Part shown: positions 9,909 through 60,012 of the stretch, piece by piece | Layout: every line of letters begins with the position of its first letter | Numbering within the stretch: the stretch's first letter is position 1 | Assembly: GCA_965203565.1 (NCBI GenBank) | Contig: OZ241896.1 | Span: 681,707-745,706, forward strand | DNA: 64,000 bases | Direction of reading: 5' to 3' | Source: Vicinamibacterales bacterium | Lineage (GTDB): Bacteria; Acidobacteriota; Vicinamibacteria; Vicinamibacterales; UBA8438 | Translations under genes and position numbers: made by a program | The notes under the pieces: model-generated | The model's input: the letters and a program-made list of their open reading frames with translations, nothing else | The model's database searches: none | Told to the model about the DNA's origin: nothing

Positions 9909-10226
9909 TCATGAGCCAGCCGTTTTCACCGCTCTCGAACTGCTCTTGACGAGGGCGTCCATCTCCACGTAGCGCAGCCGATCGCTGCGGGTGCGGGCCA
10001 GCGTGTCGTAGCGCAGCACCAGGACGTCGACCTGCGGCTTCGGCGCAACGCCAGGCGTCTCCAATGCGCCCAGCTTGTCAAGGTGGGAGATCGTGGCCGA
10101 GCGGATGGCGCGCTTCGCAGCGGCCGCGGTGTCGGCGGCGGCGTAGACGCCAGGCAAGCCAGCCACCCACGCGCTGAACGTGCCGTTGCTTTCGCGCTCG
10201 ATGATCACCGGGTAACATGTCGTCAT
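9909..10226 (-). CDS. hicB: HicB-family antitoxin
   Basis: MTTCYPVIIERESNGTFSAWVAGLPGVYAAADTAAAAKRAIRSAT... is a typical HicB N-terminal fold signature. Internal ATG chosen; it overlaps the hicA stop as ATGA. Confidence 0.8.
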   Translation of the reverse strand: MTTCYPVIIERESNGTFSAWVAGLPGVYAAADTAAAAKRAIRSATISHLDKLGALETPGVAPKPQVDVLVLRYDTLARTRSDRLRYVEMDALVKSSSRAVKTAGS

Positions 10227-10408
10227 AATCCCGCCTCCTTCAGGATACGACGAGCAAGTCCAGTGCCGACTTCCTTCTTCGTGTGGACCGACACCGTGAT
10301 GACCTTGCCTGTCTTCAAGTGGACAAGCTGCCGATGGCTTCCCTTGCCGGTTCGTTGTTCGATGAAACCGGCAGCTTTCAGACGGCGAATCAACTCGCCC
10401 CACGTCAC
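10223..10408 (-). CDS. hicA: HicA-family mRNA interferase toxin
   Basis: 61 aa, MTWGELIRRLKAAGFIEQRTGKGSHRQLVHLKTGKVITVSVHTKKEVGTGLARRILKEAGL. GTG start. Confidence 0.85.
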   Translation of the reverse strand: MTWGELIRRLKAAGFIEQRTGKGSHRQLVHLKTGKVITVSVHTKKEVGTGLARRILKEAGL

Positions 10409-10433
10409 TTGATCGATTTATTCCGCGCAAGCG

Positions 10434-11432
10434 CTACCGGCGGGTTCCGGGCATGTCGGTCCGCACCCGGTACAGCGTCTTGCCCGCGGTGACGTACAGC
10501 GTCCGGAGGTCCGGACCGCCGAAGGCGCAGTTGGTGATGGTGTCCTCCGGGATCGGGATCAGCTCCAGGAGCTCGCCGTCGGGCGAGAAGACGTGGACGC
10601 CGCACGGCGTGTCGAGCGTCTCGCTCGTGCCCCGCAGGCGGTGCAGGCCGGCCGCCACGTACAGGTTCCCCTCGCTGTCTATCGTCATCCCGTCGCCGCT
10701 GCGCCCCGGATGGAAGTCGTGGAAGACGCGCATGTTGCTGACCGCGCCGTCCTCGGCCAGGTCGTACGCGCGGATCATCCGCGCGCCGCCCGCGCTCTGG
10801 TCGGCCTCGATGACGTACAGCGTGCGGTCGTCGGGCGAGACGACGACGCCGTTCGGCCGGACCACCTCCGGCTCGGTCAGGATCCGCTCCACCGTCCCGT
10901 CCGGGTCGATACGGTAGACGCCGTGGACGCCGGTGCGGTCCGGGCCGTGCCCCGGCTCGGGCCGGTCGGTGAAGTAGATCCGGCCGCGCCCGTCTATCGT
11001 CAGGTCGTTCGGCCGGTGCAGCCGTTTCCCCTCGTACCGGTCGACCAGCACCTCGACCTCGCCCGTCTCCATCGTCGTCCGGGTGATGCGCGGGTCGGCG
11101 GTGACGCCGTCGCCCCCCTCGCAGGCGAGCAGCCGCCACTGGTCGTCGAAGATCAGTCCGTTCGCCCGGTTGCTCGGCTGCCGGAACGTCGCCACCTCGC
11201 CGTCGGGGAACATCCGGAGGATCCGGTTGTTGGTGATGTCGGTGAAGTAGACCGTGCCGTCCGCATCGACGGTCGGCCCCTCGGTGAACGCGACGGCGGC
11301 GGCCGCCTCCACTTCGCGAGCGGACGCCGCCGGCTCGGGAGCGCCGGAGCACCCGCTCATGCCGGCGCCAAGCGCCGCCATGAGCGCAACGCCGATGGTC
11401 CGGACATCCATGATGGCTCGTGTTCGCGACAA
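10434..11432 (-). CDS. SMP-30/gluconolactonase/LRE-family beta-propeller lipoprotein
   Basis: Lipobox-like LGAGMSGC, then TEGPTVDADGTVYFTDITNNRILRMFPDG and PNGVVVSPDDRTLYV motifs. The start may be the MDVRT Met at 11411. Confidence 0.7.
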   Translation of the reverse strand: MSRTRAIMDVRTIGVALMAALGAGMSGCSGAPEPAASAREVEAAAAVAFTEGPTVDADGTVYFTDITNNRILRMFPDGEVATFRQPSNRANGLIFDDQWRLLACEGGDGVTADPRITRTTMETGEVEVLVDRYEGKRLHRPNDLTIDGRGRIYFTDRPEPGHGPDRTGVHGVYRIDPDGTVERILTEPEVVRPNGVVVSPDDRTLYVIEADQSAGGARMIRAYDLAEDGAVSNMRVFHDFHPGRSGDGMTIDSEGNLYVAAGLHRLRGTSETLDTPCGVHVFSPDGELLELIPIPEDTITNCAFGGPDLRTLYVTAGKTLYRVRTDMPGTRR

Positions 11433-11528
11433 ACCTCACCTCCGCAACGCATGCGCCCGACGCGCGCGACTCGGACTTGACTTGCGCCCATTCTACGCCG
11501 CCGTCCACCGCTGCGTCATCGCGTTCAG

Positions 11529-11686
11529 CAGCCCGTGGTGGAATCCCGCGGGGCGCCGAGAGCGGCGAGGCGCCCGCCTGACAAGGCGTGAGGAGGGCGC
11601 ATATTGGGCATACGCAACCGACGAACAACGCCGTCAGGCGGGATGCATCGCTGCTCGAATGCAGCGGAGACCTCCGCCACGGGCTG
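11529..11686 (+). mobile_element. 158-bp MITE-like element, A-subfamily, copy 1 (TSD TCAG)
   Basis: CAGCCCGTGG...CCACGGGCTG terminal inverted repeats. TCAG is found directly on both sides (11525-11528 and 11687-11690). Internal AGGAGG-N7-TTG reads on the + strand. Confidence 0.8.
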
Positions 11687-11756
11687 TCAGGCGTTGATGC
11701 CGGGAACCTTGCGATCTAGAATGGCGGTCGGAACCCCCGTCCGCGGCGAGGGGCTG

Positions 11757-12236
11757 ATGCTGCGACTGTCGAAGAAGACCGACTACGCCCTGATCGCGCT
11801 CAAGGACTTGGCGTCGAATCGGCGCGGCGCGGCGTCGAGCGCGCGCGAGATCGCGGCGCGGTACAACGTTCCGGTGGAGTTGATGGCCAAGGTCCTGCAG
11901 CGGCTGGCGCGGCATGGGCTGCTCGCATCGCTGCAGGGAACGCGCGGCGGGTACCGTCTGGCCCGCTCCCCGGCGCAGATCTCGGTGGCGGACGTCATCG
12001 AGGCGATAGACGGCCCGGTGGCGGTGACCGCCTGCTCGGACGTGGACGAAAGCTGCTGCCAGTACTCGACGTGCAACGTCCGGAACCCGCTCTGGCGGCT
12101 GCAGGACCGGATCGAGCGGACGCTCGCCGAGTTCACGATTGCGGAGCTGGCGCGCGCCGACGCGCCGGCGCCGCTCCCGCCGGCGGCCCGCGGCGCCTCC
12201 CGGCCTCGCCCGGAGACCGCCGCGGCCCCCGGCTGA
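11757..12236 (+). CDS. Rrf2-family (IscR-like) transcriptional regulator
   Basis: MLRLSKKTDYALIALKDLA... wHTH region, GTRGGYRLARSP, and Cys cluster CSDVDESCCQYSTC. Confidence 0.8.
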   Translation: MLRLSKKTDYALIALKDLASNRRGAASSAREIAARYNVPVELMAKVLQRLARHGLLASLQGTRGGYRLARSPAQISVADVIEAIDGPVAVTACSDVDESCCQYSTCNVRNPLWRLQDRIERTLAEFTIAELARADAPAPLPPAARGASRPRPETAAAPG

Positions 12237-12364
12237 CGCGCCGCGCCGAACCGCGGAGCGGCGCCGCCCGCGTCGGCCGGCTCCGCGAGCTGTCGCCGGC
12301 GCGCCGCGCATCCTGACGCCGCGGCCGGCCGGATAGGGTACACTGGCCCGGCAAGCGCGCACCG

Positions 12365-12688
12365 ATGATCGAGATCACGCCGGCGGCGGCGCGGAGAATC
12401 CGTGAGGCGATGGCCCGGGAAGGCGCCGAGGGCGGTCTCCGCGTCGGCGTCAAGGCGGGCGGCTGCTCGGGCCTGAGCTACGTCTTCAGGTGGGAGGCCG
12501 CTCCGAAGCCCGAGGACGAGACCTTCGAGAGTCCCGACGGTACGCGGATCTTCGTGGACAGGAAAAGCTACCGGTACCTCGACGGCACGGTTCTCGACTG
12601 CGACGCCAACATGCTGGGCCAGTCGCTGATTTTTCGCAACCCGAACGCGAAGAGCGCGTGCGGTTGCGGCCTGTCGTTCCAGGTCTAG
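12365..12688 (+). CDS. HesB/IscA/ErpA-family iron-sulfur cluster insertion protein
   Basis: 107 aa with GGCSGLSY motif and C-terminal CGCGLSF. Confidence 0.85.
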   Translation: MIEITPAAARRIREAMAREGAEGGLRVGVKAGGCSGLSYVFRWEAAPKPEDETFESPDGTRIFVDRKSYRYLDGTVLDCDANMLGQSLIFRNPNAKSACGCGLSFQV

Positions 12689-12730
12689 CCTGTCTGGCCT
12701 GGTCCCCGGCTCCGACCCGCGCGCCGCCGG

Positions 12731-14299
12731 ATGCGGCGTGCGTCTCTACTCTGGCGAACGATGGCGTCTCCCGATCCCGGCTCGCGGTCCAACCGCCCCC
12801 TGGTGATCGTGTCGAACCGGGAGCCGTACCAGCACGTCCGGCTGGAGGACGGAACGGTGGGGTGGTCGCCCACCACGGGCGGAGTGGCCGTGGCCCTCGA
12901 CGCCCTGATGCGCGAGCGGGGCGGCATCTGGATCGCGCACGGGTCGGGCGACGCCGACCGCGACGTGGTCGATGCGCACGACCGGGTGGTGGTCCCGCCC
13001 GACAAGCCGTCGTACCCGCTGCGGCGGATCTGGCTGACGCCGGACGAGCAGCGCCGCTACTACGACGGGTTCGCCAACGAAGGCCTCTGGCCGCTCTGCC
13101 ACGAGGCCCACGTCCGGCCGGTCTTCCGCGCCCGCGACTGGGCCGACTACCGGAAGGTCAACCGGCGGTTCGCGGCCGTGATCGAGGATGAGCTGCCTGA
13201 CGACGCCGCGCCGGTCTTCGTCCAGGACTACCACCTCGCCCTGGTGGCGCCCGTGCTGCGCGCCCGCCGGCCGCGCGTCAAGACCGCGCTCTTCTGGCAC
13301 ATTCCCTGGCCGAGCGCGGACCGGCTCCGGATCTGCCCTTGGCGGAAGGAGCTACTGGCCGGGCTGCTCGCCAACGACCTGCTCGCATTCCAGCTCGGGC
13401 GCGACCGGCGCAACTTCCTCGCCGCCGCGCGCGACGAGCTCGGCGCCGACGTCACGCGCGGCAGCGTGCGGCTGGGAGACCGGGTCACGGCGGTGGCGGC
13501 CGCGCCGATCGGGATCGACTTCGATCGGATCCAGACGATAGCCGGCGACCCCTCGACGGCGGCCGACTCCCGGCGCCTCGCCGGTGAACTCCGGATCGAG
13601 ACGCCGATCGTCGGCGTAGGCGTGGACCGGCTCGACTACACCAAGGGGATTCCCGAGCGGCTGGAGGCGCTCGACCTGCTCCTGACGCGGCGCCCCGATC
13701 TGCAGGGACGGTTGACGTTCGTGCAGATCGGCGTGCCGTCGCGTTCGACGATCGACAGCTACGCGGCGACCGAGGCGGAGATCGATCGGAAGGTCGCGGA
13801 GATCAACCGCCGGCGGCCGGCGGCCGGCGGGCCGGTCCGGTACCGGAAGTCGGCGCTCCGGATCAAGCGTCTGGTCGCGCTGTTCCGTCTGGCCGACTTC
13901 TGCATCGTCAGCTCGCTCCACGACGGGATGAACCTGGTCGCCAAGGAGTTCGTCGCGGCGCGCGACGATTGCGGCGGCGTGCTGGTGCTGAGCGAGATGG
14001 CGGGAGCGGCCCAGGAGCTCCAGGACGCGCTGGCGATCAATCCGTACGACGTCGAAGGGTTCGCGCAGGCGATAGAGCACGCCATCGACATGCCGGCCGA
14101 CGAGCGGCGGCGGCGGATGCGGGCGCTCCGGCGCGTCGTGGCCGGCCGGAACGTCTTCAGCTGGGCGTCCGACATCCTCGAGGAGCTCGACGGCCTCGAC
14201 CCGGCCGCGCTGCCGCCGGCACCCGGCCGGACGACGTTCGACCGCCGCCGCGCCGCCGCCCTCCGCGCGCGCCTCCCTGCCGAAGGCAGGGCGTCCTGA
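12731..14299 (+). CDS. otsA: alpha,alpha-trehalose-phosphate synthase (GT20)
   Basis: VSNREPY, FANEGLWPLCH, VQDYHLALV, FWHIPWPS, GVDRLDYTKGIPERL and SLHDGMNLVAKEF motifs. The start is alternatively at 12761. Confidence 0.8.
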   Translation: MRRASLLWRTMASPDPGSRSNRPLVIVSNREPYQHVRLEDGTVGWSPTTGGVAVALDALMRERGGIWIAHGSGDADRDVVDAHDRVVVPPDKPSYPLRRIWLTPDEQRRYYDGFANEGLWPLCHEAHVRPVFRARDWADYRKVNRRFAAVIEDELPDDAAPVFVQDYHLALVAPVLRARRPRVKTALFWHIPWPSADRLRICPWRKELLAGLLANDLLAFQLGRDRRNFLAAARDELGADVTRGSVRLGDRVTAVAAAPIGIDFDRIQTIAGDPSTAADSRRLAGELRIETPIVGVGVDRLDYTKGIPERLEALDLLLTRRPDLQGRLTFVQIGVPSRSTIDSYAATEAEIDRKVAEINRRRPAAGGPVRYRKSALRIKRLVALFRLADFCIVSSLHDGMNLVAKEFVAARDDCGGVLVLSEMAGAAQELQDALAINPYDVEGFAQAIEHAIDMPADERRRRMRALRRVVAGRNVFSWASDILEELDGLDPAALPPAPGRTTFDRRRAAALRARLPAEGRAS

Positions 14300-14300
14300 C

Positions 14301-14822
14301 GTGCCGGACTCGCCGCCGATGTCACTGATGCCTTTCGTGCGCGGCGCCCTGCGGCACAGCATGCGGGCGTACTACCTGCCGCTGGCGGCCGGACTGGCGC
14401 TGGCGGCGAGCGCCTTCATGCCGTGGATGCTGATGGGCGAGTCGCGCTTCGGCGGCGTGCCGAACGCGGCGGCGCTCTGGGTGCTCGGACTCGGGCTGCT
14501 GGCGGCGGTCCTCGCGGCGCTCAGCGTCGTCACCCGCAAGAACTCGCGGCATCCGTTGCTGCTGGTCGGCCTGGCGGCGTTCGCCGTCCTGCTGGTGGGC
14601 GAGCAGCTCATGGAGCGCTCGGCGACCCAGACGGCATGGGCCCGCGCCCAGGCGCGCGCCATCGTGGTGGGCGCGCCGGCCGTCGAGACGCCGACGCCGG
14701 CGCTGGCGCCGGGGGCCTGGCTCGGTCTGTCCGCGGCCGGCGTGATCACGGCGTTCGGCCTGACCATCGTCGTCCGCCGCGTGGCGAGCCCGTACGCCGA
14801 GCCGGAAGACGACGATGCCTGA
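14301..14822 (+). CDS. hypothetical integral membrane protein (about 4 TM helices)
   Basis: Hydrophobic segments LPLAAGLALAASAF, ALWVLGLGLLAAVLAAL, LLLVGLAAFAVLLV, LGLSAAGVITAFGLTIVV. No recognisable family. Confidence 0.5.
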   Translation: MPDSPPMSLMPFVRGALRHSMRAYYLPLAAGLALAASAFMPWMLMGESRFGGVPNAAALWVLGLGLLAAVLAALSVVTRKNSRHPLLLVGLAAFAVLLVGEQLMERSATQTAWARAQARAIVVGAPAVETPTPALAPGAWLGLSAAGVITAFGLTIVVRRVASPYAEPEDDDA

Positions 14823-15666
14823 CGCCGCTCCGCCGCCGGCCCGGATCACCGTGGCGCACAGCCCGGACTCCGACGACGCCTTCATGTTCTACGGCTTCGC
14901 CTGCGGCGCAGTCGCCTCCGGCCGGTTCGCGATCGAGCAGGTGCTGGCCGACATCGAGACGCTGAACCGGGCCGCGTTCGAGGGGAAGTACGAGGTGACG
15001 GCGGTCTCGTTCCACGCCTACGCGCACCTGCGCGACCGGTACGCCCTGCTCCCGCACGGCGCCAGCATGGGCGACCGGTACGGGCCGATCGTCGTGACCC
15101 GGGCCGACGGCCCGGCGTCGCTCGACGGCGTGACGGTGGCGATTCCGGGCGAGCTGACCACGGCGCATCTCGCGCTGCAACTGTTCCATCCCGGCGTGGC
15201 GTGGCGCGCCATGCCGTTCGACGCGATCCAGCCGGCGGTCGTGGACGGGACGGTGGAGGCGGGGTTGCTGATCCACGAGGGACAGCTCACGTACGGCGAC
15301 GACGGGCTGCGCCTTCTGGTCGACCTCGGCGTCTGGTGGGCCGACCGGACCGGCGGCCTCCCGCTCCCGCTCGGGTGCAACGTGATCCGGCGCGACCTCG
15401 GCCGCGACGCCATGCTCGAGGTGTCGCGGCTGCTCCACGCCAGCATCGCCCACGCCCTCGGCCACCGGGACGACGCGATCGCGTACGCGCTCGACTTCGG
15501 GCGCGGCCTCGACGCGCAGCGCACCGACCGGTTCGTCGGGATGTACGTGAACGAGCTGACGCTCGACTACGGCCCGCGCGGCCGCGCCGCCGCCGAGCGC
15601 CTGTTCGCCGACGCCTGGGACCGGCGCCTGATCCCCCGGCCGGTCCCGGTCGAGTTCGTCGAGTAG
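14815..15666 (+). CDS. MqnA/MqnD-family protein (futalosine-route menaquinone biosynthesis, periplasmic-binding-protein fold)
   Basis: ITVAHSPDSDDAFMFYG ... LLIHEGQLTY ... resembles the COG2107-type family. The subfamily is not resolved. Confidence 0.5.
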   Translation: MPDAAPPPARITVAHSPDSDDAFMFYGFACGAVASGRFAIEQVLADIETLNRAAFEGKYEVTAVSFHAYAHLRDRYALLPHGASMGDRYGPIVVTRADGPASLDGVTVAIPGELTTAHLALQLFHPGVAWRAMPFDAIQPAVVDGTVEAGLLIHEGQLTYGDDGLRLLVDLGVWWADRTGGLPLPLGCNVIRRDLGRDAMLEVSRLLHASIAHALGHRDDAIAYALDFGRGLDAQRTDRFVGMYVNELTLDYGPRGRAAAERLFADAWDRRLIPRPVPVEFVE

Positions 15667-15757
15667 CCGCGGGCCGGCCGGCCCGCCGCCGCGTTCCGGG
15701 TGGATGCAGCGCGCGATTCAGCGACCGTCCCCGCTGCGCCGGCGCCCGTATCCGCGT

Positions 15758-17866
15758 TCAGCGCAGCACGTCGCTCGCTTCGGCTTCCCGGACGTACCGC
15801 TCGGCGTCCTCTTCAAGCAGGAACCGCTCCCGCACGAGGTCGGCCGTCGCTCGCCGGACCGCCTCCACGTACCCGGCGTGGTCGCCGTACCGCTCTTCGA
15901 GCGACGGCCGGGGGTCGCCCGCCGCCTCGCGCTCCGCCCGGGTCCGGGCGAACGGCAGGAACGAGCCGGTCAGGCCGCAGAGGTTCCCCGCGCGCCGGCC
16001 CTCCGCCCGCACGTTCCATCCCAGGTTGGTGCCGAGCGGGACGCGCACCTCCAGCGGCCGGACGCCGGCGTGGTTGAGCCCGTCCGCATCGGCCGAGGGG
16101 ACCAGCACGGCGTAGGCGGGTCCGATGCCGGGCGGCAGCCGCGTCAGGTAGCCGCCGGTCGAGCCGAACCCGGGCCCGAAGTCGAGCAGCGACACCCCGC
16201 TGAGGTCCTGCACCATCCCCGCGCCGGGAATCCGCGGGAACCGCTCCACGTACTCGTCGAGCGGGACCAGCGTGCCGTCCTCCACCCGCGGATACCGGCT
16301 CGGCGGCGGCTCCACGCCGCGGTCAGCCCAGGCGTCGAGCGCCGTCAGCAGGGCGCGGTGCGTCGGGCCGTGGTAGTTCGGGTTGGTCGGATGGGCGCAC
16401 AGGTCGTCCGTTCCGGGCACTTCCGCGGTCGGATCGCCGCCGCTGTGCTGGAAGTTCGAGAACAGGTACAACCGCACGTTGTCCGGCACGAACACCGGCC
16501 GCCCGAGGCCGTCGTGCACGTTCAGCGACGCCTTCATCGTGTAGAACTCGTTCTCGCTGTCGGTCTGGATCACCACCGGATCGGTCGCCGGCCGCTTCAG
16601 GATCCCGTCGCGGATCCCGGAGAGCGGGTCGGTGACCACCGCGTACTGCATCGGCGGGTACGACGTCGACAGGAAGTGGCGCCGGTCGTCCTGCCGCGAG
16701 TAGGTGTTCGGGTCGGCGAACGCCACGTTGGCGAACAGCCGGTGCGACCCGGGGATGTGAACGTTGACGGCGTCGAACACCCGCCGGTGCGCCTCGTCCT
16801 CGTTGAACCCGAGATAGAGGAAGTCGCGCAGGTACATCCCGGTGGAGGAAGAGCCGGAGGCGTACGCGCGCCGGACGGCGACCTCGCCGGTCTCCAGCGC
16901 CAGCGGGTTGGGCGTCCCGTCGTCGTCGCGAGCGGCGTAGCGCAGGAACGACGCCAGGTCGCGGGTGACGGCGTAGCCGAGCCCCATCACCATCGGCTCC
17001 CGGGCCGGGTAGATCAGCTCGTACAGCCGGTCGGCCCGGAACCCCTCGAACAGGCAGACGTCGGTCTCCGACGGCTCCAGGCTGTCCGGTCCCAGCGGGC
17101 AGCGCCCGAACGCCCAGGCGTCGGCCGGGATCGGGACGCCGGGGCCGGTCAGCGTCTCCCGGACGGTGAGCGACGCGGCGGCCGGATCGAGGCCGGCGGC
17201 GGGGTACGGCCGGAACCGCGCGCTGCCCTTGAGCGGCAGGGTGAACGCGCCCTCCGCCGGAATCGACCGATCCGAGAACTCGACCCGGACCGGCGCAGCG
17301 ATCGGGCGCCCGTCGGGGCCGGCCGCCACCGGTAGCTGCGGGAAGAGGAGGCCGTCCCCCGCGGCGACGTCGCCCTGCCAGCCGGCGTCCACCACGGTGT
17401 ACCCGAGCCGCATCAGGAACCCGTCGCCGGCATGCTCGGCCGTGAGCGGGTCGTTGCTCGGCGGGACGTGGTGCCAGCGCAGCCCGCTTTCGAGCTTCCG
17501 CCCCCGGTTGTTGACGCCGTAGAAGACCTTGCCGTTGCCGCGGCGCATCTCCACCGGCTTGAGGATGAAGAACGTCGTGCTGAACTCGACCAGGCCGCGG
17601 GCGTTGCGCGGCGCGCGGTCGAGGTTCACGATGACGGCGTTGAGCGGATCGTCCGGGTCGACCTCCATGTGCGCCATGCCGTCGAGCCGTTCGTACGGGC
17701 CGACCTCCCCGAACTCCATCCCGCCGGCGAAGGCGCGCCGCTGCTCGACGACGAACCGCACCACGCGCGCCTCGGCCAGCGGCGCGCACAGGGCGGCCAG
17801 CAGACACCCCGCGCCAATCGTCTTCACGCGCCCCATCGGCATGCCTCCTCGTTGCGAGTATCGCAC
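15758..17866 (-). CDS. secreted uncharacterised protein, possibly alpha/beta-hydrolase-like
   Basis: 702-aa ORF with a signal peptide (CLLAALCAPLAEA) and protein-like composition. Family assignment rests on memory only (FYGVNNRG segment). Confidence 0.35.
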   Translation of the reverse strand: MRYSQRGGMPMGRVKTIGAGCLLAALCAPLAEARVVRFVVEQRRAFAGGMEFGEVGPYERLDGMAHMEVDPDDPLNAVIVNLDRAPRNARGLVEFSTTFFILKPVEMRRGNGKVFYGVNNRGRKLESGLRWHHVPPSNDPLTAEHAGDGFLMRLGYTVVDAGWQGDVAAGDGLLFPQLPVAAGPDGRPIAAPVRVEFSDRSIPAEGAFTLPLKGSARFRPYPAAGLDPAAASLTVRETLTGPGVPIPADAWAFGRCPLGPDSLEPSETDVCLFEGFRADRLYELIYPAREPMVMGLGYAVTRDLASFLRYAARDDDGTPNPLALETGEVAVRRAYASGSSSTGMYLRDFLYLGFNEDEAHRRVFDAVNVHIPGSHRLFANVAFADPNTYSRQDDRRHFLSTSYPPMQYAVVTDPLSGIRDGILKRPATDPVVIQTDSENEFYTMKASLNVHDGLGRPVFVPDNVRLYLFSNFQHSGGDPTAEVPGTDDLCAHPTNPNYHGPTHRALLTALDAWADRGVEPPPSRYPRVEDGTLVPLDEYVERFPRIPGAGMVQDLSGVSLLDFGPGFGSTGGYLTRLPPGIGPAYAVLVPSADADGLNHAGVRPLEVRVPLGTNLGWNVRAEGRRAGNLCGLTGSFLPFARTRAEREAAGDPRPSLEERYGDHAGYVEAVRRATADLVRERFLLEEDAERYVREAEASDVLR

Positions 17867-17891
17867 GAACTCGTTGGATAATGGATCCGGA

Positions 17892-18638
17892 GTGACCGGA
17901 CGCCGATCGAACGTGACGGGCCGGGCTGGGGCCGGCCTCGATCTCGCCGCCGGACTGCTGGTGCTGACGGCCGCCGCCGCCGCCGCCTGGCGGCGACTCG
18001 ACCTGCCGGCGGCCTATCTGCTCCAGTCCGCGGCGTTGTACGCGCCGCTCGCGGCGTGCGTCGCGCGCGCCGCGCCGGCGGGCCTGCCCGGCCGGGGACT
18101 GGGCGCGGCGAACCGCGTGACGCTGGCGCGCGCGGCGCTGGCGCTCTCCATCGCGCCGCTGGCGCTCCACCTCGACCGTCCGGACGCGGCGGCGTGCTGG
18201 TGGGTCATCGCGGTGGCGACGGCGGCGCTGATCCTGGACGGGGTCGATGGGTGGGTCGCGCGCCGCACCGGCGGCGCGACCGCCTTCGGCGCCCGGTTCG
18301 ACATGGAGCTGGACGCCTTCCTGATGCTGGCGCTCTCCGCCGTGGTCTGGTCGAGCGGCCGGGTCGGCCCGTGGGTGCTGGCGATCGGGGCCATCCGGTA
18401 CCTGTTCGTCGCCGCCGGCTGGCTCCGGCCGGCGTTGCGGGCGGCGCTGCCGGCCAGCTTGCGCCGCAAGGCGATCTGCGTCGTCCAGGGGATCGCGCTG
18501 CTGGTCTGCCTGGGGCCGATCGTGCCCCGGTCCGGCGCCGTAGCCGCCGCCGCCATCGCCCTCGCGCTGCTGGTCTGTTCGTTCGCGGTCGACGTCCGCT
18601 GGCTCGTCCGGCGCGCCGCCGCCGGCGGATTAAGATGA
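17892..18638 (+). CDS. CDP-alcohol phosphatidyltransferase-family membrane protein
   Basis: Exact signature DG(x2)AR(x8)G(x3)D(x3)D in LDGVDGWVARRTGGATAFGARFDMELDAF. GTG start chosen just after the convergent upstream gene. Confidence 0.75.
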   Translation: MTGRRSNVTGRAGAGLDLAAGLLVLTAAAAAAWRRLDLPAAYLLQSAALYAPLAACVARAAPAGLPGRGLGAANRVTLARAALALSIAPLALHLDRPDAAACWWVIAVATAALILDGVDGWVARRTGGATAFGARFDMELDAFLMLALSAVVWSSGRVGPWVLAIGAIRYLFVAAGWLRPALRAALPASLRRKAICVVQGIALLVCLGPIVPRSGAVAAAAIALALLVCSFAVDVRWLVRRAAAGGLR

Positions 18639-19588
18639 TGGACAGGATGCGCACGCTGCGAGGACGGCGCCGGAGCGGAGGCGGACCGATCGCCGTCGCC
18701 GGCTCGCTCGCCGCGGCCGGGCTGATCGCCGCCGTTCCGGCGCACCGGCCGCCCGCGTCCTGGCAGCCCGCGCAGTCGCCGCAGCTTCCGGCGATCGGCA
18801 GCCAGCAGCGCCACGCGCGCGGCCGGAACGTCGTGCCGCTGTACCGGGGCTGGTTCACCGGTGAGGACGGCCGGATCTACGCCGCCTTCGAATATCTGAA
18901 CCTGAACTCCGACGAGACGCTGCACGTCCCGGTCGGCCCCGACAACGCCCTCGCGCCGGGGCCGGCCGACCAGGGGCAGCCGGCCTGGTTCCTGCCGGGG
19001 CATCGGCGCGGCGTCTTCGCGGCGCCGGTCCCGGAAGGGTCCGGGCCGGCGGAGATCACGTGGACGCTCCGCGTCCGCGGCCGGACCATCACCATGCCGT
19101 CGAACCTGGGCCCGCTGTACGAGATCGAGGGGCTCGTGAACCACGGCGGCTCGTTCCCCGGCAACACGCCCCCCGTCGTGCGGCTCGCGCCGGACGGCCC
19201 GCCGGCGCAGGGACCGGCCGGGACGTCGGGCGCAATCGAGGCGCGCGCGGGCGAGGCCGCGCCGCTCGACCTGTGGGTGACGGACGACGGGCTGCCCCCG
19301 CCGCCCGACCGCTCGAAGGTGATCCGGTCGCTGCAGCGCAGCTACCGGCGGGGCGACGCCAGCGCGGAAGGGGTGACGGTGGCGTGGACCCGGTACCGGG
19401 GGACCGGTACGGTAAGCTTCTCCGACCCCGACCCGCCCGTCGAGCAGGGCCGGGCCGGCACGACCGCGACGTTCGACCAGCCGGGCGAGTACGTGCTGCG
19501 GGCGCTGGTCTCCGACGGCTCGGGATTCGACGGCTGCTGCTGGACGAACGTCTACGTCGCGGCCGTCGTGCGGCCCGCGGGCCGGTAG
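18635..19588 (+). CDS. hypothetical secreted protein (C-terminal Ig/PKD-like end)
   Basis: ATG overlaps the preceding stop as ATGA. Signal-like IAVAGSLAAAGLIAAVPA. Ends GEYVLRALVSDGSGFDGCCWTNVYVAAV. Confidence 0.5.
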   Translation: MMDRMRTLRGRRRSGGGPIAVAGSLAAAGLIAAVPAHRPPASWQPAQSPQLPAIGSQQRHARGRNVVPLYRGWFTGEDGRIYAAFEYLNLNSDETLHVPVGPDNALAPGPADQGQPAWFLPGHRRGVFAAPVPEGSGPAEITWTLRVRGRTITMPSNLGPLYEIEGLVNHGGSFPGNTPPVVRLAPDGPPAQGPAGTSGAIEARAGEAAPLDLWVTDDGLPPPPDRSKVIRSLQRSYRRGDASAEGVTVAWTRYRGTGTVSFSDPDPPVEQGRAGTTATFDQPGEYVLRALVSDGSGFDGCCWTNVYVAAVVRPAGR

Positions 19589-19633
19589 CGGCGGACGGAC
19601 GGCGGCGCAGGACGGCGCAGAAAGGACGACGTC

Positions 19634-21052
19634 ATGAAGCAGCGGGACGCGCGCGGCGGCAGGCGGCGGCGGACCGGAGCCTGTCTGCTGACGGCCGGCA
19701 TGACGGCCGGATTCGCGGGCGCCGCTGCGGCTCAGCAACCCGCGGCCCGGCCGGAGGTCACCTTCGCGCGGGACGTCGCGCCGATCTTCCAGCGGAAGTG
19801 CCAGGAGTGCCACCGGCCGGACAGCATGGCGCCGATGTCGCTGCTGACGTACGAGGAGTCCCGCCCCTGGGCGCGCGCCATCCGGGCGCGGGTCGCCGCG
19901 CGGGAGATGCCGCCGTGGTTCCTCGACAGGACGGTGGGGATTCAGCAGTTCATCAACGACGCCTCGCTGAGCGACGCAGAGATTGACGTCGTCGTCCGCT
20001 GGGTCGACGCCGGCGCGCCGGCCGGCGACCCAGCGGACCTGCCGCCGCCGCGCGTCTGGCCCGACGGCGACCGGTTCCGGCTGGAGTCCGCGCTCGGGCC
20101 GCCCGACCTCGTCGTCCGGTCGGTCCCGTTCACCATGCCGGCGGTGGCGCAGGACACGTTCTTCCGCCCGTTCGTCGACGTGCCGCTGACCGAACCGCGC
20201 TGGATCCGGGCCGCCGAGACCAAGCCGTCGGGGCGCGACGGCCGGCGCATCGCGCATCACGCGTCGACCTTCCTCCACCAGCCCGAGACGCCGGAGTTCC
20301 TGGAGGCCGAACGCGCCATGCTCGCAGGCCAGGCGGCGGCCGACGCCGTGCTGCAAGTGGCCCGCGACCGCGCCGGCGGCGACCCGATCGACACGCGCGA
20401 GATGTTCACGGAATGGGCGCAGGGGAAGGGGGGCGAAATCTATCCCGAGGACACCGGCAAGCTGGTGCTGCCGGGCGCGCGGGTGGAGTTCTCCATCCAT
20501 TACCATGCGGTCGGCGAGGAGATCACCGACCGGCTCGAGGTCGGGTGGTGGTTTCATCCGAAGGGGGTCACGCCGAAGTACAGCGCGTCGTTCGTCTCGG
20601 TCGGAAGCGTGAACGTGAAACCGCTGCATATCCCGCCCCACACCGAAACGGTGCACCAGGGCTCCTACACGCTGCCGGCGCCCGCCATCCTGCACAACTT
20701 CCAGCCGCACATGCACTATCGGGGGAAGGCGTTCTCGCTCGAAGCGATCTACCCGGACGGCCGCCGCGAGCTGCTCAACCACGCCGACCGGTTCAGCAAC
20801 GACTGGCACGTCAACTACATCTACCACCCGGACCACGCGCCGGTGCTGCCGGGCGGCGCGGTGCTGCAGATCACGGCGTGGCACGACAACACGGCGGCCA
20901 ACCGGAACAACCCCGACCCCCGCCAGTGGGTCTGGTACGGGCCGCGCACGGTGGACGAGATGGCCCACTCGAACGCGCAGCTGATCTTCATCGGCGACGA
21001 CGACTACGAACGGCTCACCGAGGAGCGCCGCCGCCGAACCAGCCAGGATTGA
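19634..21052 (+). CDS. cytochrome-c domain fused to a copper type-II monooxygenase (PHM/DBH)-like domain
   Basis: N-terminal VAPIFQRKCQECHRPDSMAPMSLLTYEE...MPPW (CxxCH). C-terminal HYHAVGEE and PHMHYRGK His clusters. Confidence 0.5.
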   Translation: MKQRDARGGRRRRTGACLLTAGMTAGFAGAAAAQQPAARPEVTFARDVAPIFQRKCQECHRPDSMAPMSLLTYEESRPWARAIRARVAAREMPPWFLDRTVGIQQFINDASLSDAEIDVVVRWVDAGAPAGDPADLPPPRVWPDGDRFRLESALGPPDLVVRSVPFTMPAVAQDTFFRPFVDVPLTEPRWIRAAETKPSGRDGRRIAHHASTFLHQPETPEFLEAERAMLAGQAAADAVLQVARDRAGGDPIDTREMFTEWAQGKGGEIYPEDTGKLVLPGARVEFSIHYHAVGEEITDRLEVGWWFHPKGVTPKYSASFVSVGSVNVKPLHIPPHTETVHQGSYTLPAPAILHNFQPHMHYRGKAFSLEAIYPDGRRELLNHADRFSNDWHVNYIYHPDHAPVLPGGAVLQITAWHDNTAANRNNPDPRQWVWYGPRTVDEMAHSNAQLIFIGDDDYERLTEERRRRTSQD

Positions 21053-21057
21053 ATGCC

Positions 21058-22287
21058 ATGCGTAACGTCGATGCCCTGTCGCGGCGCGGATTCCTCCTGA
21101 ACGCCGCCGGCGGCGTGAGCCTGCTCGGCGTCATGCGCCTGCTGCGCGAGGCCGGGCTGCTCGCCCAGGGCCGCGGCCGCGCGGGGGCGGATCCCCGGCA
21201 GGTCTTCCAGGCGGCCGTGGACGAAGCGATTCGCGCGGGCGAGGTCGGCATCCAGTTCGCCGTCTATCAGGGCGAGGATCTGGTCGTCGACGTCTGGGGC
21301 GGGGTGGCCGACGAGACCACGGGCCGCATGGTCGACCGGGAGACGCTCTTCAACGTCTTCTCGGTGACCAAGGCGATCACCGCCACGGCGCTGCACGTCC
21401 AGGCCGAACGGGGGCTGGTCTCGTACGACGCGCCGATAGCGCGCTACTGGCCGGAGTTCGCGGCGCACGGCAAGGACAGGGCCACGGTGCGCGACGGCCT
21501 GAGCCACCGCACCGGGATTCCGGCCATGCCGGCGGGAGTCACGCCGGAGCAGATGGCCGACTACGACTGGATGGTGAACGCGCTGGCCGGCATGGAGCCG
21601 GTCTTCGAACCGGGCGCGACCAACGCCTACCACAGCTACACCTGGGGCTGGATCATCTCCGAGATCGTCGAGCGGACGGATCCGCGCCGGCGGCCGTTCC
21701 GCCAGTTCGTGCACGACGAGATCGCCGCGCCGCTCGGCATCGAGGACCTGTGGATGGGGCTGCCGCCGGAGGACGAGCCGCGGGTCGCCAGAATGACGAA
21801 CACCGGGATCTCTATCGCCGATCAGAGCACGGCGCGCGGGCGGTCGATGCCGATACAGGTGGCCGGCACGCAGGACGTGTTCGGACGCTCCATCATCCGG
21901 CGCGCGGTCATCCCGGGAGCCGGAGGGATCTACAACGCCGTCAGCACGGCGCGCTTCTTCGCGCTGCTGGCGAACGAAGGCCGGCTCGACGGCGTGCGCC
22001 TGCTGTCGCCGGAGCGCGTGCGCGGCTGCCTGGAGCCGCGCCCCGACACCGACGAACTCGACGTCGGCCGCGGCACGATCACGCGCGTCTCGAACGGCGG
22101 GTTCTGGCTGGAGGCGCCCGGCGTGGTCGGCGGCGGACGCATCCTGAGCCATCCGGGGCTGGGCGGCTCCATCGGCTGGGCGGACCTCGACAACCGTCTG
22201 GCGGTTGCGGTCTGCCACAACCGGCACGGACTCGCGTACGCCGAGCCGCTCGCCGGCGCCCTGGGCGAAGCGTTCGGCGTGGCGTAG
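21058..22287 (+). CDS. serine hydrolase (class C beta-lactamase/esterase family), Tat-type signal
   Basis: SRRGFLL twin-arginine motif and SVTK (SxxK) nucleophile motif. Confidence 0.75.
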   Translation: MRNVDALSRRGFLLNAAGGVSLLGVMRLLREAGLLAQGRGRAGADPRQVFQAAVDEAIRAGEVGIQFAVYQGEDLVVDVWGGVADETTGRMVDRETLFNVFSVTKAITATALHVQAERGLVSYDAPIARYWPEFAAHGKDRATVRDGLSHRTGIPAMPAGVTPEQMADYDWMVNALAGMEPVFEPGATNAYHSYTWGWIISEIVERTDPRRRPFRQFVHDEIAAPLGIEDLWMGLPPEDEPRVARMTNTGISIADQSTARGRSMPIQVAGTQDVFGRSIIRRAVIPGAGGIYNAVSTARFFALLANEGRLDGVRLLSPERVRGCLEPRPDTDELDVGRGTITRVSNGGFWLEAPGVVGGGRILSHPGLGGSIGWADLDNRLAVAVCHNRHGLAYAEPLAGALGEAFGVA

Positions 22288-22292
22288 TCGCG

Positions 22293-24200
22293 TCAGCCCG
22301 CGGCGGGGGCGCCCGACAGGCGCCGCCATACGGGGACGAGCGCGACGCCGGCGGTCAGCAGCGCGCCGATCCAGACCGCCCGCCAGGGGAGCCAGACCGG
22401 CGGCGGCGCGCCGGTGAGCCACGTGCCCGCCCCCACCAGCAGGCAGAAGACCGACAGGCCGCACGCGGCGGTCGCGCCCGCGCCGCGCGCCAGCCGCCGG
22501 GGGCCGTCGCCGGGCGGATCGCCGGCCGCCGCCGCGATCGGCCCCCAGAACCCGGCCGGCCGCGTCTTCCGGTAGAACGCGGCGAGCCGGCCGTGGTCTT
22601 CCGGCGGCGCGACCCGGACGGCGACCAGCGCGGCGGCGGTCGCCAGCGCCGCCATCAGCAGCAGGCGCGCCGCCTGATCGTCGTCGCCGAGGAGCGTCAT
22701 GAGCACCGGCGCGGCGACGATAGAAACGAGCGCGGCGGCGATCTCCGCCCAGGCGTTCACGCGCCACCAGATCCAGCGCAGCACCAGCACCACGCCCATG
22801 CCGGCGCCCATGAGCAGGCTGGCCCGCCACGCCTGCTCGATCGACGTGAGCCGGGTCATGATCAGCAGCGCGATGATCAGGATGGCGGCGTTGGCGCCCC
22901 GCGCCACCCGGACCAGCGCGCGGCCGCTCGGCTCGACGCCCCGCCACGCCCGGCAGACGAACCGCCGGTAGACGTCGTTGGTCCAGTACGAAGCGCCCCA
23001 GTTCAGGTGGGTGTCGACCGTCGAGGCGACGGCCGCCAGCATGCCGGTCAGCATCAGTCCCTTCAGCCCCGGCGGCAGCAGCTCGGCCATCCCCCGGACG
23101 TACGACGCCTCGCGTTCGGCTTGCAGGAGCGCCGGCGCGAGGTCCGGGTCGGGCGGGAAGAGGACCAGCAGCCCCAGGCCGAGCGGGAGCCACAGCAGAC
23201 TGCGCAGCACCACCTGCGTGTAGGTGAACACCACCGCCGCGGTCCGCGCGTCGGCGTCGCTCCGGCAGGCCATCGTCCGCTGCGCCAGATACCCGCTGCC
23301 GTCCGCGTTGAGCTGGATCAGCCACAGCAGGCCGATCAGGCCGAGCGCGGCCGGCGTGGCGCCGTGCGCCCGGTCCGGGGTGAACGCCAGGATCGCGTCC
23401 GGCCGGATGCCGCCCGGCCCGCCCGCCGCGAACTGCGCTCGGATACGCTCGGCGATCGCGCCCGGCCCGCCCGCCTCGGCCGCGACGATGCCCGCGAAGG
23501 CGGCCGTGCCGGCCAGCATGACGGCGATCTGCACGACGTCGGTGGCGACCACGCCGCGGAGGCCGCCGGTCGCCGAGTACGACGTGACGACGGCCAGCAG
23601 CAGCACGATCGAGATGAAGTTGCTGGCGGTCTTCGTCCAGACGTCCGGGTCGTCGGGCCGGCCGATCGTCAGGGGCGCGCCGACCCAGGCCGCCAGGTCG
23701 ACGACCGGTTCGAACAGTCCCGGCGGCAGCCACTGATCCCACGTCAGGAACGGCTCGGCGATCCGGGCCGCGGCCAGCAGCACCCAGGCCAGCACCGTGC
23801 AGTTGAGGACGGTCCCGAAGTAGATCGCCTTGACGCCGCGCAGCGCCGCCGCCGCGCGCCGCCCGTATCGCAGCTCGGTCAGCTCCGCGTCGGTCAGGAC
23901 GCCCGACCGGCGCCAGCTCGACGACAGGACGAAGCCCATCAGCAGGAACGCCAGCGCATAGATCCAGAGTCGCCACAGCGCGAAGATTCCGGCGGTGGCG
24001 ATCAGGCCGGTGACGAGCAGCGGGGTGTCGGCGGCGAACTGCGTGGCCGCCATGCTCAGGCCGGCCTTCCAGCCGGGCAGGGTGCGGCCGGCCAGGAAGT
24101 ACTCGTCGAGGCTGCGCGCCGCGGCGCGCCGGTTCCGGATCCCGGCCGCCGCCGCGTAGACGACGAAGGCGGCGACTATCGCCAGATCGGTCGGCGTCAT
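22293..24200 (-). CDS. sodium:solute symporter (SSS) family transporter
   Basis: MTPTDLAIVAAFVVYAAAAGIRNRR...DEYFLAGRTLPGWKAGLSMAATQFAADTPL; many TM helices. Alternative ATG at 24218. Confidence 0.75.
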   Translation of the reverse strand: MTPTDLAIVAAFVVYAAAAGIRNRRAAARSLDEYFLAGRTLPGWKAGLSMAATQFAADTPLLVTGLIATAGIFALWRLWIYALAFLLMGFVLSSSWRRSGVLTDAELTELRYGRRAAAALRGVKAIYFGTVLNCTVLAWVLLAAARIAEPFLTWDQWLPPGLFEPVVDLAAWVGAPLTIGRPDDPDVWTKTASNFISIVLLLAVVTSYSATGGLRGVVATDVVQIAVMLAGTAAFAGIVAAEAGGPGAIAERIRAQFAAGGPGGIRPDAILAFTPDRAHGATPAALGLIGLLWLIQLNADGSGYLAQRTMACRSDADARTAAVVFTYTQVVLRSLLWLPLGLGLLVLFPPDPDLAPALLQAEREASYVRGMAELLPPGLKGLMLTGMLAAVASTVDTHLNWGASYWTNDVYRRFVCRAWRGVEPSGRALVRVARGANAAILIIALLIMTRLTSIEQAWRASLLMGAGMGVVLVLRWIWWRVNAWAEIAAALVSIVAAPVLMTLLGDDDQAARLLLMAALATAAALVAVRVAPPEDHGRLAAFYRKTRPAGFWGPIAAAAGDPPGDGPRRLARGAGATAACGLSVFCLLVGAGTWLTGAPPPVWLPWRAVWIGALLTAGVALVPVWRRLSGAPAAG

Positions 24201-24245
24201 TGTCCGATCACGCATCATAACCGGCTGTTCGCGCACAGCAACACG

Positions 24246-24251
24246 TATACT
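24246..24251 (+). promoter_or_regulatory. candidate -10 box TATACT, 6 nt upstream of vapB-like ATG (leaderless geometry)
   Basis: ACGTATACTGTGCGCATG in an otherwise GC-rich divergent intergenic region. Confidence 0.35.
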
Positions 24252-24257
24252 GTGCGC

Positions 24258-24488
24258 ATGAAGAACGTCACTCTCAGCGTCGACGAAGCGGTGCTCCGCA
24301 CGGTGAGGCTGTACGCGGCCGAGCGCGGATCGACGGTCAACGCACTGGTCAGGGAGTTCCTGAACGGACTTGCCGGCAAGGAGGATCGTGCGCGCCGTGC
24401 GCGCCGTCGGATCGTCGAGTTGAGCGCGCGGTCGACGGCCCGGATCGGTTCCCGGACGTGGCCCCGTGAGGATCTGCATGAACGTTGA
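24258..24488 (+). CDS. ribbon-helix-helix-type antitoxin (VapB-like)
   Basis: 76 aa, MKNVTLSVDEAVLRTVRLYAAERGSTVNALVREFLNGL. Overlaps the downstream PIN gene. Confidence 0.65.
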   Translation: MKNVTLSVDEAVLRTVRLYAAERGSTVNALVREFLNGLAGKEDRARRARRRIVELSARSTARIGSRTWPREDLHER

Positions 24489-24900
24489 GGCGCTGCTCGA
24501 CACCAACGTGCTGGTGTACGCAGCCGCCGGCCGGGGGCTGGACGACGTCAAGCGGCGGCGCGCGCTGGCGCTGATCGACGAGGTCGACTTCGGACTCTCG
24601 GCCCAGGTGCTCCAGGAGTTCTACGTCACCGTCGTGCACAAGGTTCAGGTCCCGCTGAGCGTAGCTGATGCGCTCGCCTGGATCGAGCAGTTCGACGCGT
24701 TTCCCTGCCAGGCGCTCGACTCCAGCATCGTCAAGAGCGCCGCCGAGATCAGCCAGCGTCACCGCATCAGCTACTGGGATGGAGCGATCGTCGCCGCCGC
24801 CGAAGCACTGGGCGCCCGCACCCTCTTCACCGAAGACCTGAGCCACGGTCAGCTCTACGACACGGTGCGGGTCGAGAATCCGTTCCGCAGCCTGACTTGA
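24478..24900 (+). CDS. vapC: PIN-domain toxin VapC
   Basis: MNVEALLDTNVLVYAA..., SAQVLQEFY, ISYWDGAIVAAA, FTEDLSHG acidic PIN residues. Confidence 0.8.
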   Translation: MNVEALLDTNVLVYAAAGRGLDDVKRRRALALIDEVDFGLSAQVLQEFYVTVVHKVQVPLSVADALAWIEQFDAFPCQALDSSIVKSAAEISQRHRISYWDGAIVAAAEALGARTLFTEDLSHGQLYDTVRVENPFRSLT

Positions 24901-24998
24901 CAGAACCCCGCGTCGCGCCGGCGGCGGCCGGCTTTGTCCTGGCCGCGGGTCGGCGTATGCTGTGCACCACGGGGTCCGAACGCGGAAGGAGTGGCGGA

Positions 24999-37602: not shown

Positions 37603-37677
37603 TATGCTCCCTCCTCACGCCTTGTCAGCCGGGCGCCCCGCCCGTCTCGGTGCGACGCGGGGTTTTACCACGGGCTG
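37520..37677 (-). mobile_element. 158-bp MITE-like element, B-subfamily, inserted after codon 11 of GT-C copy 3 (TSD CCAG/CCAA)
   Basis: TIRs CAGCCCGTGG/CCACGGGCTG. Flanks ggcCCAG|...|CCAAgtcc. Uninterrupted paralogues read ...CGGACCTGGGCC... across the site. Confidence 0.8.
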
Positions 37678-37710
37678 CCAAGTCCGGCAGGACATGCGGG
37701 AAATCGTCAT
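37615..37710 (-). other. orphaned original start of copy 3: 31-codon ORF (MTISRMSCRTW + 20 element-encoded codons)
   Basis: ATG 37710 overlaps the copy-4 stop as ATGA. Its stop TGA sits inside the element's GTGAGGAGGG, 12 nt upstream of TTG 37602. Confidence 0.5.
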
Positions 37711-39737: not shown

Positions 39738-39812
39738 TATGCTCCCTCCTCACGCCTTGTCAGCCGGGCGCCCCGCCCGTCTCGGTGCGACGCGGGGTTT
39801 CACCACGGGCTG
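39655..39812 (-). mobile_element. 158-bp MITE-like element, B-subfamily, inserted after codon 11 of GT-C copy 4 (TSD CCAG)
   Basis: Flanks ggcCCAG|CAGCCCGTGG...CCACGGGCTG|CCAGgtcc. Confidence 0.8.
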
Positions 39813-39845
39813 CCAGGTCCGACAGGACATGCGGGAAATCGTCAT
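39750..39845 (-). other. orphaned original start of copy 4: 31-codon ORF reading into the MITE
   Basis: Identical arrangement to 37615-37710. ATG 39845 overlaps the copy-5 stop. Confidence 0.5.
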
Positions 39846-45815: not shown

Positions 45816-45824
45816 CGTTCGCCC

Positions 45825-45830
45825 ATGATA
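45825..45830 (-). promoter_or_regulatory. candidate -10 box TATCAT, 9 nt upstream of the copy-7 ATG (array promoter candidate)
   Basis: Minus-strand GGTTATCATGGGCGAACGATG. The 14-mer GTTATCATGGGCGA is identical to 63779-63792. Confidence 0.35.
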
Positions 45831-45923
45831 ACCGCGCCGGTATACGATGTACGCGGAAGGCTTGCCGATGATCGGACTGCGATGCGGGAGGTTGGTCGCC
45901 GTCGGCGCGGCGCGCGGGCCGCG

Positions 45924-46081
45924 CAGCCCGTGGCAAAATCCCCGCTGCATTCGACGGGCGCTGCATCCCGGCTGAACTGCGTTGTTCGTCGGTCGAATAT
46001 GGCCAATATGCTCCCTCCTCACGCCTTGTCAGCCGGGCGCCCCGCCCGTCTCGGCGCCCCGCGGGGTTTCACCACGGGCTG
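45924..46081 (-). mobile_element. 158-bp MITE-like element, B-subfamily (TSD CGCG)
   Basis: Flanks ggcCGCG|CAGCCCGTGG...CCACGGGCTG|CGCGgcg. Lies between divergent copy 7 and the ACHEGNY paralogue 2. Confidence 0.8.
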
Positions 46082-60003: not shown

Positions 60004-60012
60004 GGTACGCGC

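Follow-up and report, generated by a model that had tools for sequence, protein, structure and literature searches.

The 158-bp sequence at positions 11529-11686 of a 64,000-nucleotide stretch of Vicinamibacterales DNA (contig OZ241896.1; the whole stretch is referred to here as the window) recurs within that stretch, and raises the question of what kind of element it is and how its copies were spread. We propose that it is, in all likelihood, a non-autonomous DNA transposon (MITE) moved by a DDE transposase provided in trans, the most likely supplier being a ~1.5-kb IS5/IS1182-like family of insertion sequences (ISs). The observations that carry this reading are terminal inverted repeats (TIRs), target-site duplications (TSDs), empty sites, a spread over many species, an IS with matching termini, and the co-occurrence of that IS with the MITE. 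The copies make up a genuine MITE family, not described before, in the Vicinamibacterales, which are abundant and mostly uncultured soil Acidobacteria whose mobile DNA is essentially undescribed. In the literature searched, MITEs of this order are not the subject of any paper, and the TIR string was confined to unrelated eukaryotic papers.

Copies of the Element in the Window

The five full copies and one half copy claimed in an earlier note on this DNA are all recovered when one copy is compared with the window by BLAST, which gives full-length matches at 100, 99.4, 97.5, 83.6, and 83.0% identity and places the half copy at 59931-60004 (Table 1). Each full copy is exactly 158 bp long. The same note had described 10-bp TIRs with a single variant end, and this is what is found, as the exact 10-mer CAGCCCGTGG or its complement is confined, in the 64-kb window, to the element ends. 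The termini CAGCCCGTGG...CCACGGGCTG form perfect TIRs in four of the five copies, and the sole end with one mismatch lies at 55314-55323. The likeness between the two ends reaches ~22 nt and imperfect pairing continues down both arms. The 4-nt direct repeats beside the copies are also as first described, four of the five being exact and one having a single mismatch. We define the forward strand of the element as the one that reads ...CTGACAAGGCGTGAGGAGGGCGCATATTGG..., and the copies at 11529 and 55166 are then opposite in orientation to those at 37520, 39655, and 45924; the same division separates two subfamilies, B and A, respectively, that are ~83% alike. The half copy has an extra G in its TIR and is truncated at the point that corresponds to the hairpin apex. 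The G+C content of the window is 68-79%.

Table 1. Coordinates of the MITE copies, of the empty sites in the GT-C array, and of examples of a second repeat (positions are those of the window unless a locus is named).
Feature	Position	Strand	TSD or sequence	Setting and internal motifs
MITE copy, subfamily B	11529-11686	+	TCAG at 11525-11528 and 11687-11690	Intergenic, flanked by divergent genes of the SGL family (minus strand, start ~11432) and for an Rrf2 regulator (plus strand); promoter-like TTGATG-17-TAGAAT (11694-11722) follows 4-8 bp downstream; internal CTGACA-16-CATATT 11578-11605, GGAGG 11592-11596, TTG 11604-11606
MITE copy, subfamily A	37520-37677	-	CCAG/CCAA (+ strand)	GT-C (PMT_2) paralogue G3, codon 11; internal TTG 37602-37600 in frame with remaining 676-codon ORF 35572-37602, minus strand
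MITE copy, subfamily A	39655-39812	-	CCAG/CCAG	Paralogue G4, same codon as the G3 insertion; in-frame TTG 39737-39735 begins ORF 37707-39737
MITE copy, subfamily A	45924-46081	-	CGCG/CGCG	97.5% identical to the 37520 copy; ~190 bp upstream of G7, with which the tandem GT-C array begins
MITE copy, subfamily B	55166-55323	+	CCAG/CCAG; right TIR CCGCGGGCTG	Follows the stop (55112) of the gene for a 2652-aa fn3 protein; inside the 5' end of the SurA-like gene that comes next, or directly ahead of it; TTG 55241 in frame with the SurA-like gene
MITE half copy	59931-60004	-		Element positions ~1-74: left TIR, left arm, core to GGAGGGCGC
Empty site (example), paralogue G2	35532-35557	-	TCCTGCCGGAC CTGG GCCGTCGCGAT	
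Equivalent empty sites	33559-33584, 41748-41773, 43748-43773, 45733-45758	-		
~85-bp repeat	L057:2369-2453			
~85-bp repeat	L033:4377-4461			
~85-bp repeat	L074:2441-2664			Tandem
~85-bp repeat	L084:4193-4276			Nested in a MITE; many other loci also carry the repeat

Insertion into the GT-C Array

Two of the copies interrupt members of an array of seven PMT_2/GT-C glycosyltransferase paralogues arranged in tandem (31578-46022, minus strand), in which the start codon of each gene overlaps the stop codon of the preceding one (ATGA). Neighbors in the array have a mosaic identity of 85-98%, which suggests that duplication and gene conversion are ongoing.

The empty sites that had been reported in the uninterrupted paralogues are located in all five of these genes (Table 1), each of which shows ...TGYYGGAC[C/G]TGGGCCGTCGCGAT. 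When the gene junctions are aligned, the uninterrupted genes read ...TGCCGGAC CTGG GCCGTCGC... and the interrupted genes G3 and G4 read ...GGAC [T/C]TGG [158 bp] CTGG GCC..., and the tandem genes recur every 1973 bp where the element is absent and every 2135 bp where it is present, the extra 162 bp being 158 plus 4. The copies in G3 and G4 differ by only 1 nt even though their flanks are only 92-96% alike, which speaks for gene conversion, or for more than one insertion at this site, over simple co-duplication.

In both genes the element follows codon 10-11 and the original reading frame meets a TGA within it. The TTG of the element (37602 and 39737) is in frame with the remainder of the gene, such that the residues MTISRISCRT would give way to a basic tail of 27 residues that precedes the first hydrophobic segment. 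The two insertions deprive these genes of their first 10 codons, which are probably replaced by way of the TTG of the MITE. A record look-up with the 676-aa MITE-initiated GT-C protein gave no match and is silent either way on the true start codon.

Distribution in the Vicinamibacterales and Target Preference

A genome scan with the invariant 19-mer core of the element found at least 84 loci, nearly all of them in MAGs labelled Vicinamibacterales or Vicinamibacteria, and these represent at least 18 species-level genomes. Among the matches listed, one locus is in a MAG labelled Bryobacterales and is a real copy. A Streptomyces match to the 19-mer was rejected as a chance one, as BLAST with the element finds nothing at that locus.

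The earlier note had proposed that the flanking tetramers be compared at other genomic copies, and the TSDs hold there. Among the matches listed, 78 copies have both TIRs, and the 4-bp TSD is exact in 33 of the 78 and has one mismatch in a further 15, as compared to a chance rate of 0.008 (0.8%) for an exact 4-bp match. The reconstructed target consensus is c/CTAG/g, and CTAG itself accounts for 8 of the 33 exact TSDs, yet its frequency in these genomes is only 0.05 times the uniform expectation. CTAG-like tetramers are thus the preferred target. Orthologous sites that lack the element are found in other species, with the site of locus L059 empty in L072, that of L066 empty in L033, and that of L007 empty in L069. 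A strain contig (L085) that is 99.5% identical to window 10430-24979 also has the copy upstream of the Rrf2 gene. The interpretation of the element as a MITE, as first put forward for this window, is consequently sound, as it is small, contains no gene, has TIRs and 4-bp TSDs, and is present in many copies for which both paralogous and orthologous empty sites are seen.

Several variants of the element are of interest in their own right. In addition to 158 bp there are size classes of 176, 197, 208-217, and 241-262 bp, in which the extra sequence consists of small hairpins or a nested ~85-bp repeat. The copies at L022:3357-3532 and L035:1729-1886 occupy an orthologous site in two species and have in common the imperfect TSD GTGA/TTGA; ~150 nt of them are identical, their flanks are 93% alike, and a replaced segment of 18 bp defines the 176-bp class. 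This pattern suggests gene conversion (concerted evolution) among copies. At L068:4421-6640 a copy with the TSD CTAT is interrupted after nucleotide 12 by a group II intron of ~2.0 kb (4433-6435, GTGCG...CTAC), for which Rfam reports group-II-D1D4-4 at 4459-4603 and Intron_gpII at 6283-6434, and whose reverse-transcriptase ORF (YADD motif) is frameshifted. This locus was considered as a 2.2-kb parent IS and was rejected, as it is a MITE split by the intron.

Hairpin Structure and Effects on Neighboring Genes

When folded, the element forms a single long hairpin over its whole length (-97 kcal/mol, z about -8). Across 30 copies of 158 bp that come from different species, column identity averages 94%, and in their consensus hairpin of 51 pairs 98.2% of the cells are paired. 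Compensatory changes are found in 9 of the 51 pairs, which is above all 500 shuffles and the slid controls, and the forward (GGAGG) strand folds more stably than its complement in 29 of the 30 copies, a difference due to three conserved G.U pairs. The apex of the hairpin holds a sigma-70-like CTGACA-16-CATATT and, at nt 64-78, GGAGG-N7-TTG.

Such features could mean that the main role of the element is that of a structured RNA or a cis-regulatory module, for example a stabilizing or terminating hairpin or a promoter/RBS cassette, that is kept by selection and for which mobility is secondary. The paired columns and compensatory changes, the better folding of one strand, and the internal promoter-like site are what one would expect of it, as are the ~150 nt that remain identical at the orthologous site in L022 and L035 with flanks at 93%. 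We nevertheless regard it as unlikely. The copies have a common master ancestry, and shuffle controls therefore overstate the covariation, while templated repair of a quasi-palindrome or gene conversion yields the same pattern without selection. Moreover, there are other MITE families (see below) with the same TIR and unrelated interiors, and the element lacks the T-run of a terminator. An Rfam search had been proposed to exclude a known REP or ncRNA family, and no family matches. Rfam 15 gives no match at the gathering threshold in the window, and around the element the best E-values are 5-6, with 13 bits against a threshold of 50. The PLSDB plasmids contain no match to the element.

The positions of the copies relative to genes bear on the same question. 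Insertions in the window have reshaped the 5' ends or promoters of the Rrf2 regulator, the SurA-like chaperone, and the tandem GT-C array, and the three full copies outside G3 and G4 are also in 5' or promoter regions. The window copies are all in frame with the downstream ORF, whereas elsewhere only 3 of 12 comparable copies are, as expected by chance, and the TTG frame is stopped at once by a CTAG target. A general role as an in-frame donor of start codons was accordingly rejected. Among the matches listed, and with crude GC3-based gene calls, the element and the gene downstream of it point the same way in 38 cases versus 23, and for the gene upstream the figures are 32 versus 18; this bias favors a regulatory function but is weak (p about 0.07), and a general regulatory role is not supported. 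A more specific version is that the palindrome has been co-opted as a portable expression module, in which a transcribed, strand-specific hairpin, a promoter-like site, and a strong GGAGG-N7-TTG start would restart translation of the GT-C pair and possibly of the SurA-like gene, with the structure under selection across Vicinamibacterales species. To this we would assign only a small probability.

The Candidate Autonomous Partner

We return to the element as a MITE, for which a source of transposase is needed. TIR searches within the at least 84 genome loci revealed no parent IS, and only noise and TIR-only mini-hairpins. Metagenomes, and also viral contigs, were then scanned with the pattern CAGCCCGTGGYGRAANCCC, which matches at 120 metagenome loci and 2 viral-contig loci, with CTAG immediately before the match in 56 of the 122. 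The two viral-contig matches have no similarity to the MITE or to an IS. Eleven of the scanned loci hold elements of 1449-1507 bp that end in the inverted 10-mer, six of them with exact TSDs (CTAG in five and CTAA in one); these ISs were retrieved by the TIR pattern and their TIR match is by construction, such that the ISs of the L067 and P0008 type described below are the only independent evidence of a match. Overall, the full-length ISs are 1449-1533 bp in length with the termini CAGCC[C/T]GTGG[C/T][A/G]AAAGTC and the TSDs CTAG, CTAA, TTAG, ATAG, and TTAA.

Each full-length IS has a single ORF of 454-477 aa with the domains DUF772 and DDE_Tnp_1/DDE_Tnp_1_6, and the Pfam models DUF772, DDE_Tnp_1, and DDE_Tnp_1_6 all score above gathering in the IS transposases. 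The top NCBIfam model is IS1182 (NF033551), at 159-184 bits (E 4e-54) and so below its equivalog cut-off of 270, and the IS5 model (IS5_4, NF033581) gives 72-105 bits against a cut-off of 140. Since these scores are below both cut-offs, the predicted assignment of the transposase as IS5/IS1182-like is an approximate one.

With the IS proteins as queries, tblastn found a homologue of 64% identity in a Vicinamibacterales chromosome (locus L067), where the IS at 4715-6195 is 1481 bp long and has the ends CAGCCTGTGGCAAAAGTC and CAGCCCGTGGAAGAAGTC. At L067:4549-6199 it lies head to tail with a MITE copy as TTAA[MITE 4553-4710]TTAA[IS 4715-6195]TTAA, an arrangement that shows that the regenerated target site was re-used. 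A protein search found at least 8000 relatives of the transposase, in clusters of up to 553 members. Ten genomic copies of one cluster (P0008) have identical TIRs, with exact 4-bp TSDs (TTAG, ATAG, CTAA, and TTTG) in 8 of the 10, and the clusters P0020, P0040, and P0076 act in the same way. In the L067 IS and the ten P0008 copies, all from Vicinamibacterales, 16-17 of the first 18 nt match the MITE, and there are 4-bp TSDs at the same type of target; in the L218 IS the left TIR agrees with the right TIR of the MITE at 17 of 18 positions. One P0008 copy is on a contig that equals in length (1,807,786 bp), and is presumably identical with, that of the MITE locus L002. Multiple copies of the IS family occur in Vicinamibacterales genomes in which the MITE is also present.

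As had been noted, the window itself contains no transposase, at least of the partner family, of which tblastn finds no homologue in the 64 kb; Pfam scans of the large ORFs in the window identify ordinary chromosomal genes. The longer, transposase-bearing element with the same TIRs that the earlier note suggested looking for is thus to be found elsewhere, as the ~1.5-kb ISs. As to its guess of an IS5/IS701-type family, the IS5 part agrees with the best models (IS1182 and IS5), and the IS701 part fails on both the TIR consensus and the type of transposase. IS701 elements generate TSDs of exactly 4 bp, are 1400-1550 bp in length, and have the TIR consensus ---YACT-Y--YR (PMC2266710), so that in TSD and length they resemble the ISs found here and an IS701-family transposase might be thought to mobilize the MITE. 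This is very unlikely, as the ISs that have the termini of the MITE encode DUF772 + DDE_Tnp_1 proteins, the IS701 consensus does not fit CAGCCCGTGGTG (PMC2266710), and no IS701-type element with CAGCCCGTGG termini was seen in the Vicinamibacterales.

We infer that the candidate IS transposase is most likely what mobilizes the MITE. The mechanism that we propose is that the outer ~18 bp of this near-perfect 158-bp palindrome would serve as TIRs that are recognized by a DDE transposase supplied in trans, that insertion would proceed by a staggered 4-bp cut with a preference for CTAG-like tetramers, and that the supplier would be the ~1.5-kb IS5/IS1182-like family, with its same termini, TSD length, and target preference.

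Possible Descent of the MITE from the IS Family

The similarity between the MITE and the ISs ends after ~18 nt. Local alignments of the apical region of the MITE with the interiors of 15 sampled ISs give scores at or below the shuffle mean, and hence the MITE is not a simple deletion derivative of any sampled IS. An interior homology suggested by MAFFT (TTGGGCATAYGCAACCGAC vs. ATGGGCAAxCGCAA..ACCGxC of the ISs) was rejected, as it was not above chance in these alignments and shuffles. There are parallels of position and frame. The transposase start is 58-89 nt from the left end in the ISs, and the TTG of the MITE is at nt 76; in five ISs the ORF crosses the right TIR (...ACG GGC TG/C TAG) as far as a TAG stop within the target, and the TTG frame of the MITE, an ORF of 28 codons, likewise crosses the right TIR to the TAG of a CTAG target. 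From position and frame only, we infer that the internal GGAGG-N7-TTG may be the relic of a transposase translation start. These parallels would fit a descent of the MITE from an unsampled member of the family, but do not prove it.

The ISs at L088, L092, L121, L163, and L167 have a transposase ORF that lacks a stop codon of its own and reads through the right TIR to the TAG of the target/TSD. Such read-through into the target may explain many of the 520-760 aa "fusions" among homologues in databases.

Further short elements of 158-194 bp with CAGCCCGTGG termini have CTAG or TTAA TSDs. In metagenomes, those at L119 (179 bp), L143 (158 bp), L146 (170 bp), L147, and L182 (168 bp) have interiors unrelated to that of the MITE, as do ~12 loci of a "CCCTCACGAC" type (e.g., L091, L129, L135, L140, L191, and L198). 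These are other MITE families, which the same IS family presumably serves in other taxa. With the same TIR and unrelated interiors, the interiors appear to be interchangeable, and the termini are the common feature.

Comparison With Known Systems

The element resembles the MITEs of prokaryotic DDE-type ISs, such as Correia/NEMIS, RUP, MITEAba12, and the QMITEs (PMC10969869), in that it is within 100-300 bp, has no gene, and is present in many copies with TIRs and a TSD of fixed length. Like them, it forms a hairpin, is mostly intergenic with an occasional insertion at the 5' end of a gene, and has TIRs in common with a full-length IS (PMC10969869). It differs from them in being in another host phylum, the 2024 review making no mention of Acidobacteria (PMC10969869), in having no Rfam or PLSDB match and a 4-bp TSD at CTAG-like sites, and in that its complementarity extends over nearly the full length (51 pairs) rather than over the TIRs alone. 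The Rickettsia palindromic elements (PMC10969869) are also palindromic repeats of ~150 bp inside coding regions, and the Vicinamibacterales insert with its TSD is 162 bp, a multiple of three. Here, however, the upstream frame meets a TGA such that there is no read-through translation, rescue of the gene would require re-initiation at the GGAGG-N7-TTG of the element, and in-frame cases are not enriched outside the window.

The partner IS is like the IS5 and IS1182 families in its one DUF772 + DDE_Tnp_1 transposase, a length of ~1.5 kb, and short TIRs. The IS5 group typically has a 4-bp TSD and targets of the YTAR/CTAG type. The partner differs from these families in that its transposase falls below both NCBIfam cut-offs (184 vs. 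270 and 105 vs. 140 bits), in that its termini start with CAG where Ga/g is usual in IS5, and in that several of the ISs have an ORF that crosses the right TIR and is closed by the TAG that the target supplies. Finally, it is hardly credible that a RAYT (Y1) transposase spread the element as a REP/REPIN-like palindrome, or that the copies come from segmental duplication and gene conversion only. The element is palindromic as a whole, and the GT-C copies, 1 nt apart in flanks that are 4-8% apart, do fit gene conversion or tandem duplication in the case of that one pair. Against these readings stand varied 4-bp TSDs at unrelated loci that are not part of the fixed element sequence, clean empty sites, and termini that match those of a DDE IS; REPINs make no TSD.

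Significance and Other Repeats

The gain from this analysis is one of annotation, and the general understanding of MITEs is unchanged. The high-copy MITE, its likely IS partner, and a second repeat of ~85 bp account for repeats that lack annotation, fragment assemblies, and lead gene callers astray, with errors that include spurious ORFs that start within the element and transposase ORFs that are fused to adjacent sequence, and all three can serve as markers of strain-level variation.

The ~85-bp repeat of Vicinamibacterales genomes is unrelated to the MITE and has the form CCAGGAGTCTGCGCCGTAGAACGGTGCAGACTCCTGG...GGGCGGCAATCGGAGCCGCAGGCGACGATTTCCGGGC, with two hairpins and no obvious TIR. CTAG or CCAG often marks its limits, it lies beside or inside the 158-bp MITE, sometimes in tandem, and the window has no copy of it. 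Two further features were seen in the window. A segment of 428 bp and lower G+C content (10002-10429), judged by eye to encode a HicA/HicB-like toxin-antitoxin pair in minus-strand orientation, is cleanly missing from the 99.5%-identical strain contig L085 and hence represents an indel polymorphism between strains. In addition, a 251-bp segment is present twice, at 60064-60314 and 61938-62188, with 98.8% identity, in the region of PQQ-dehydrogenase-like ORFs on the minus strand.
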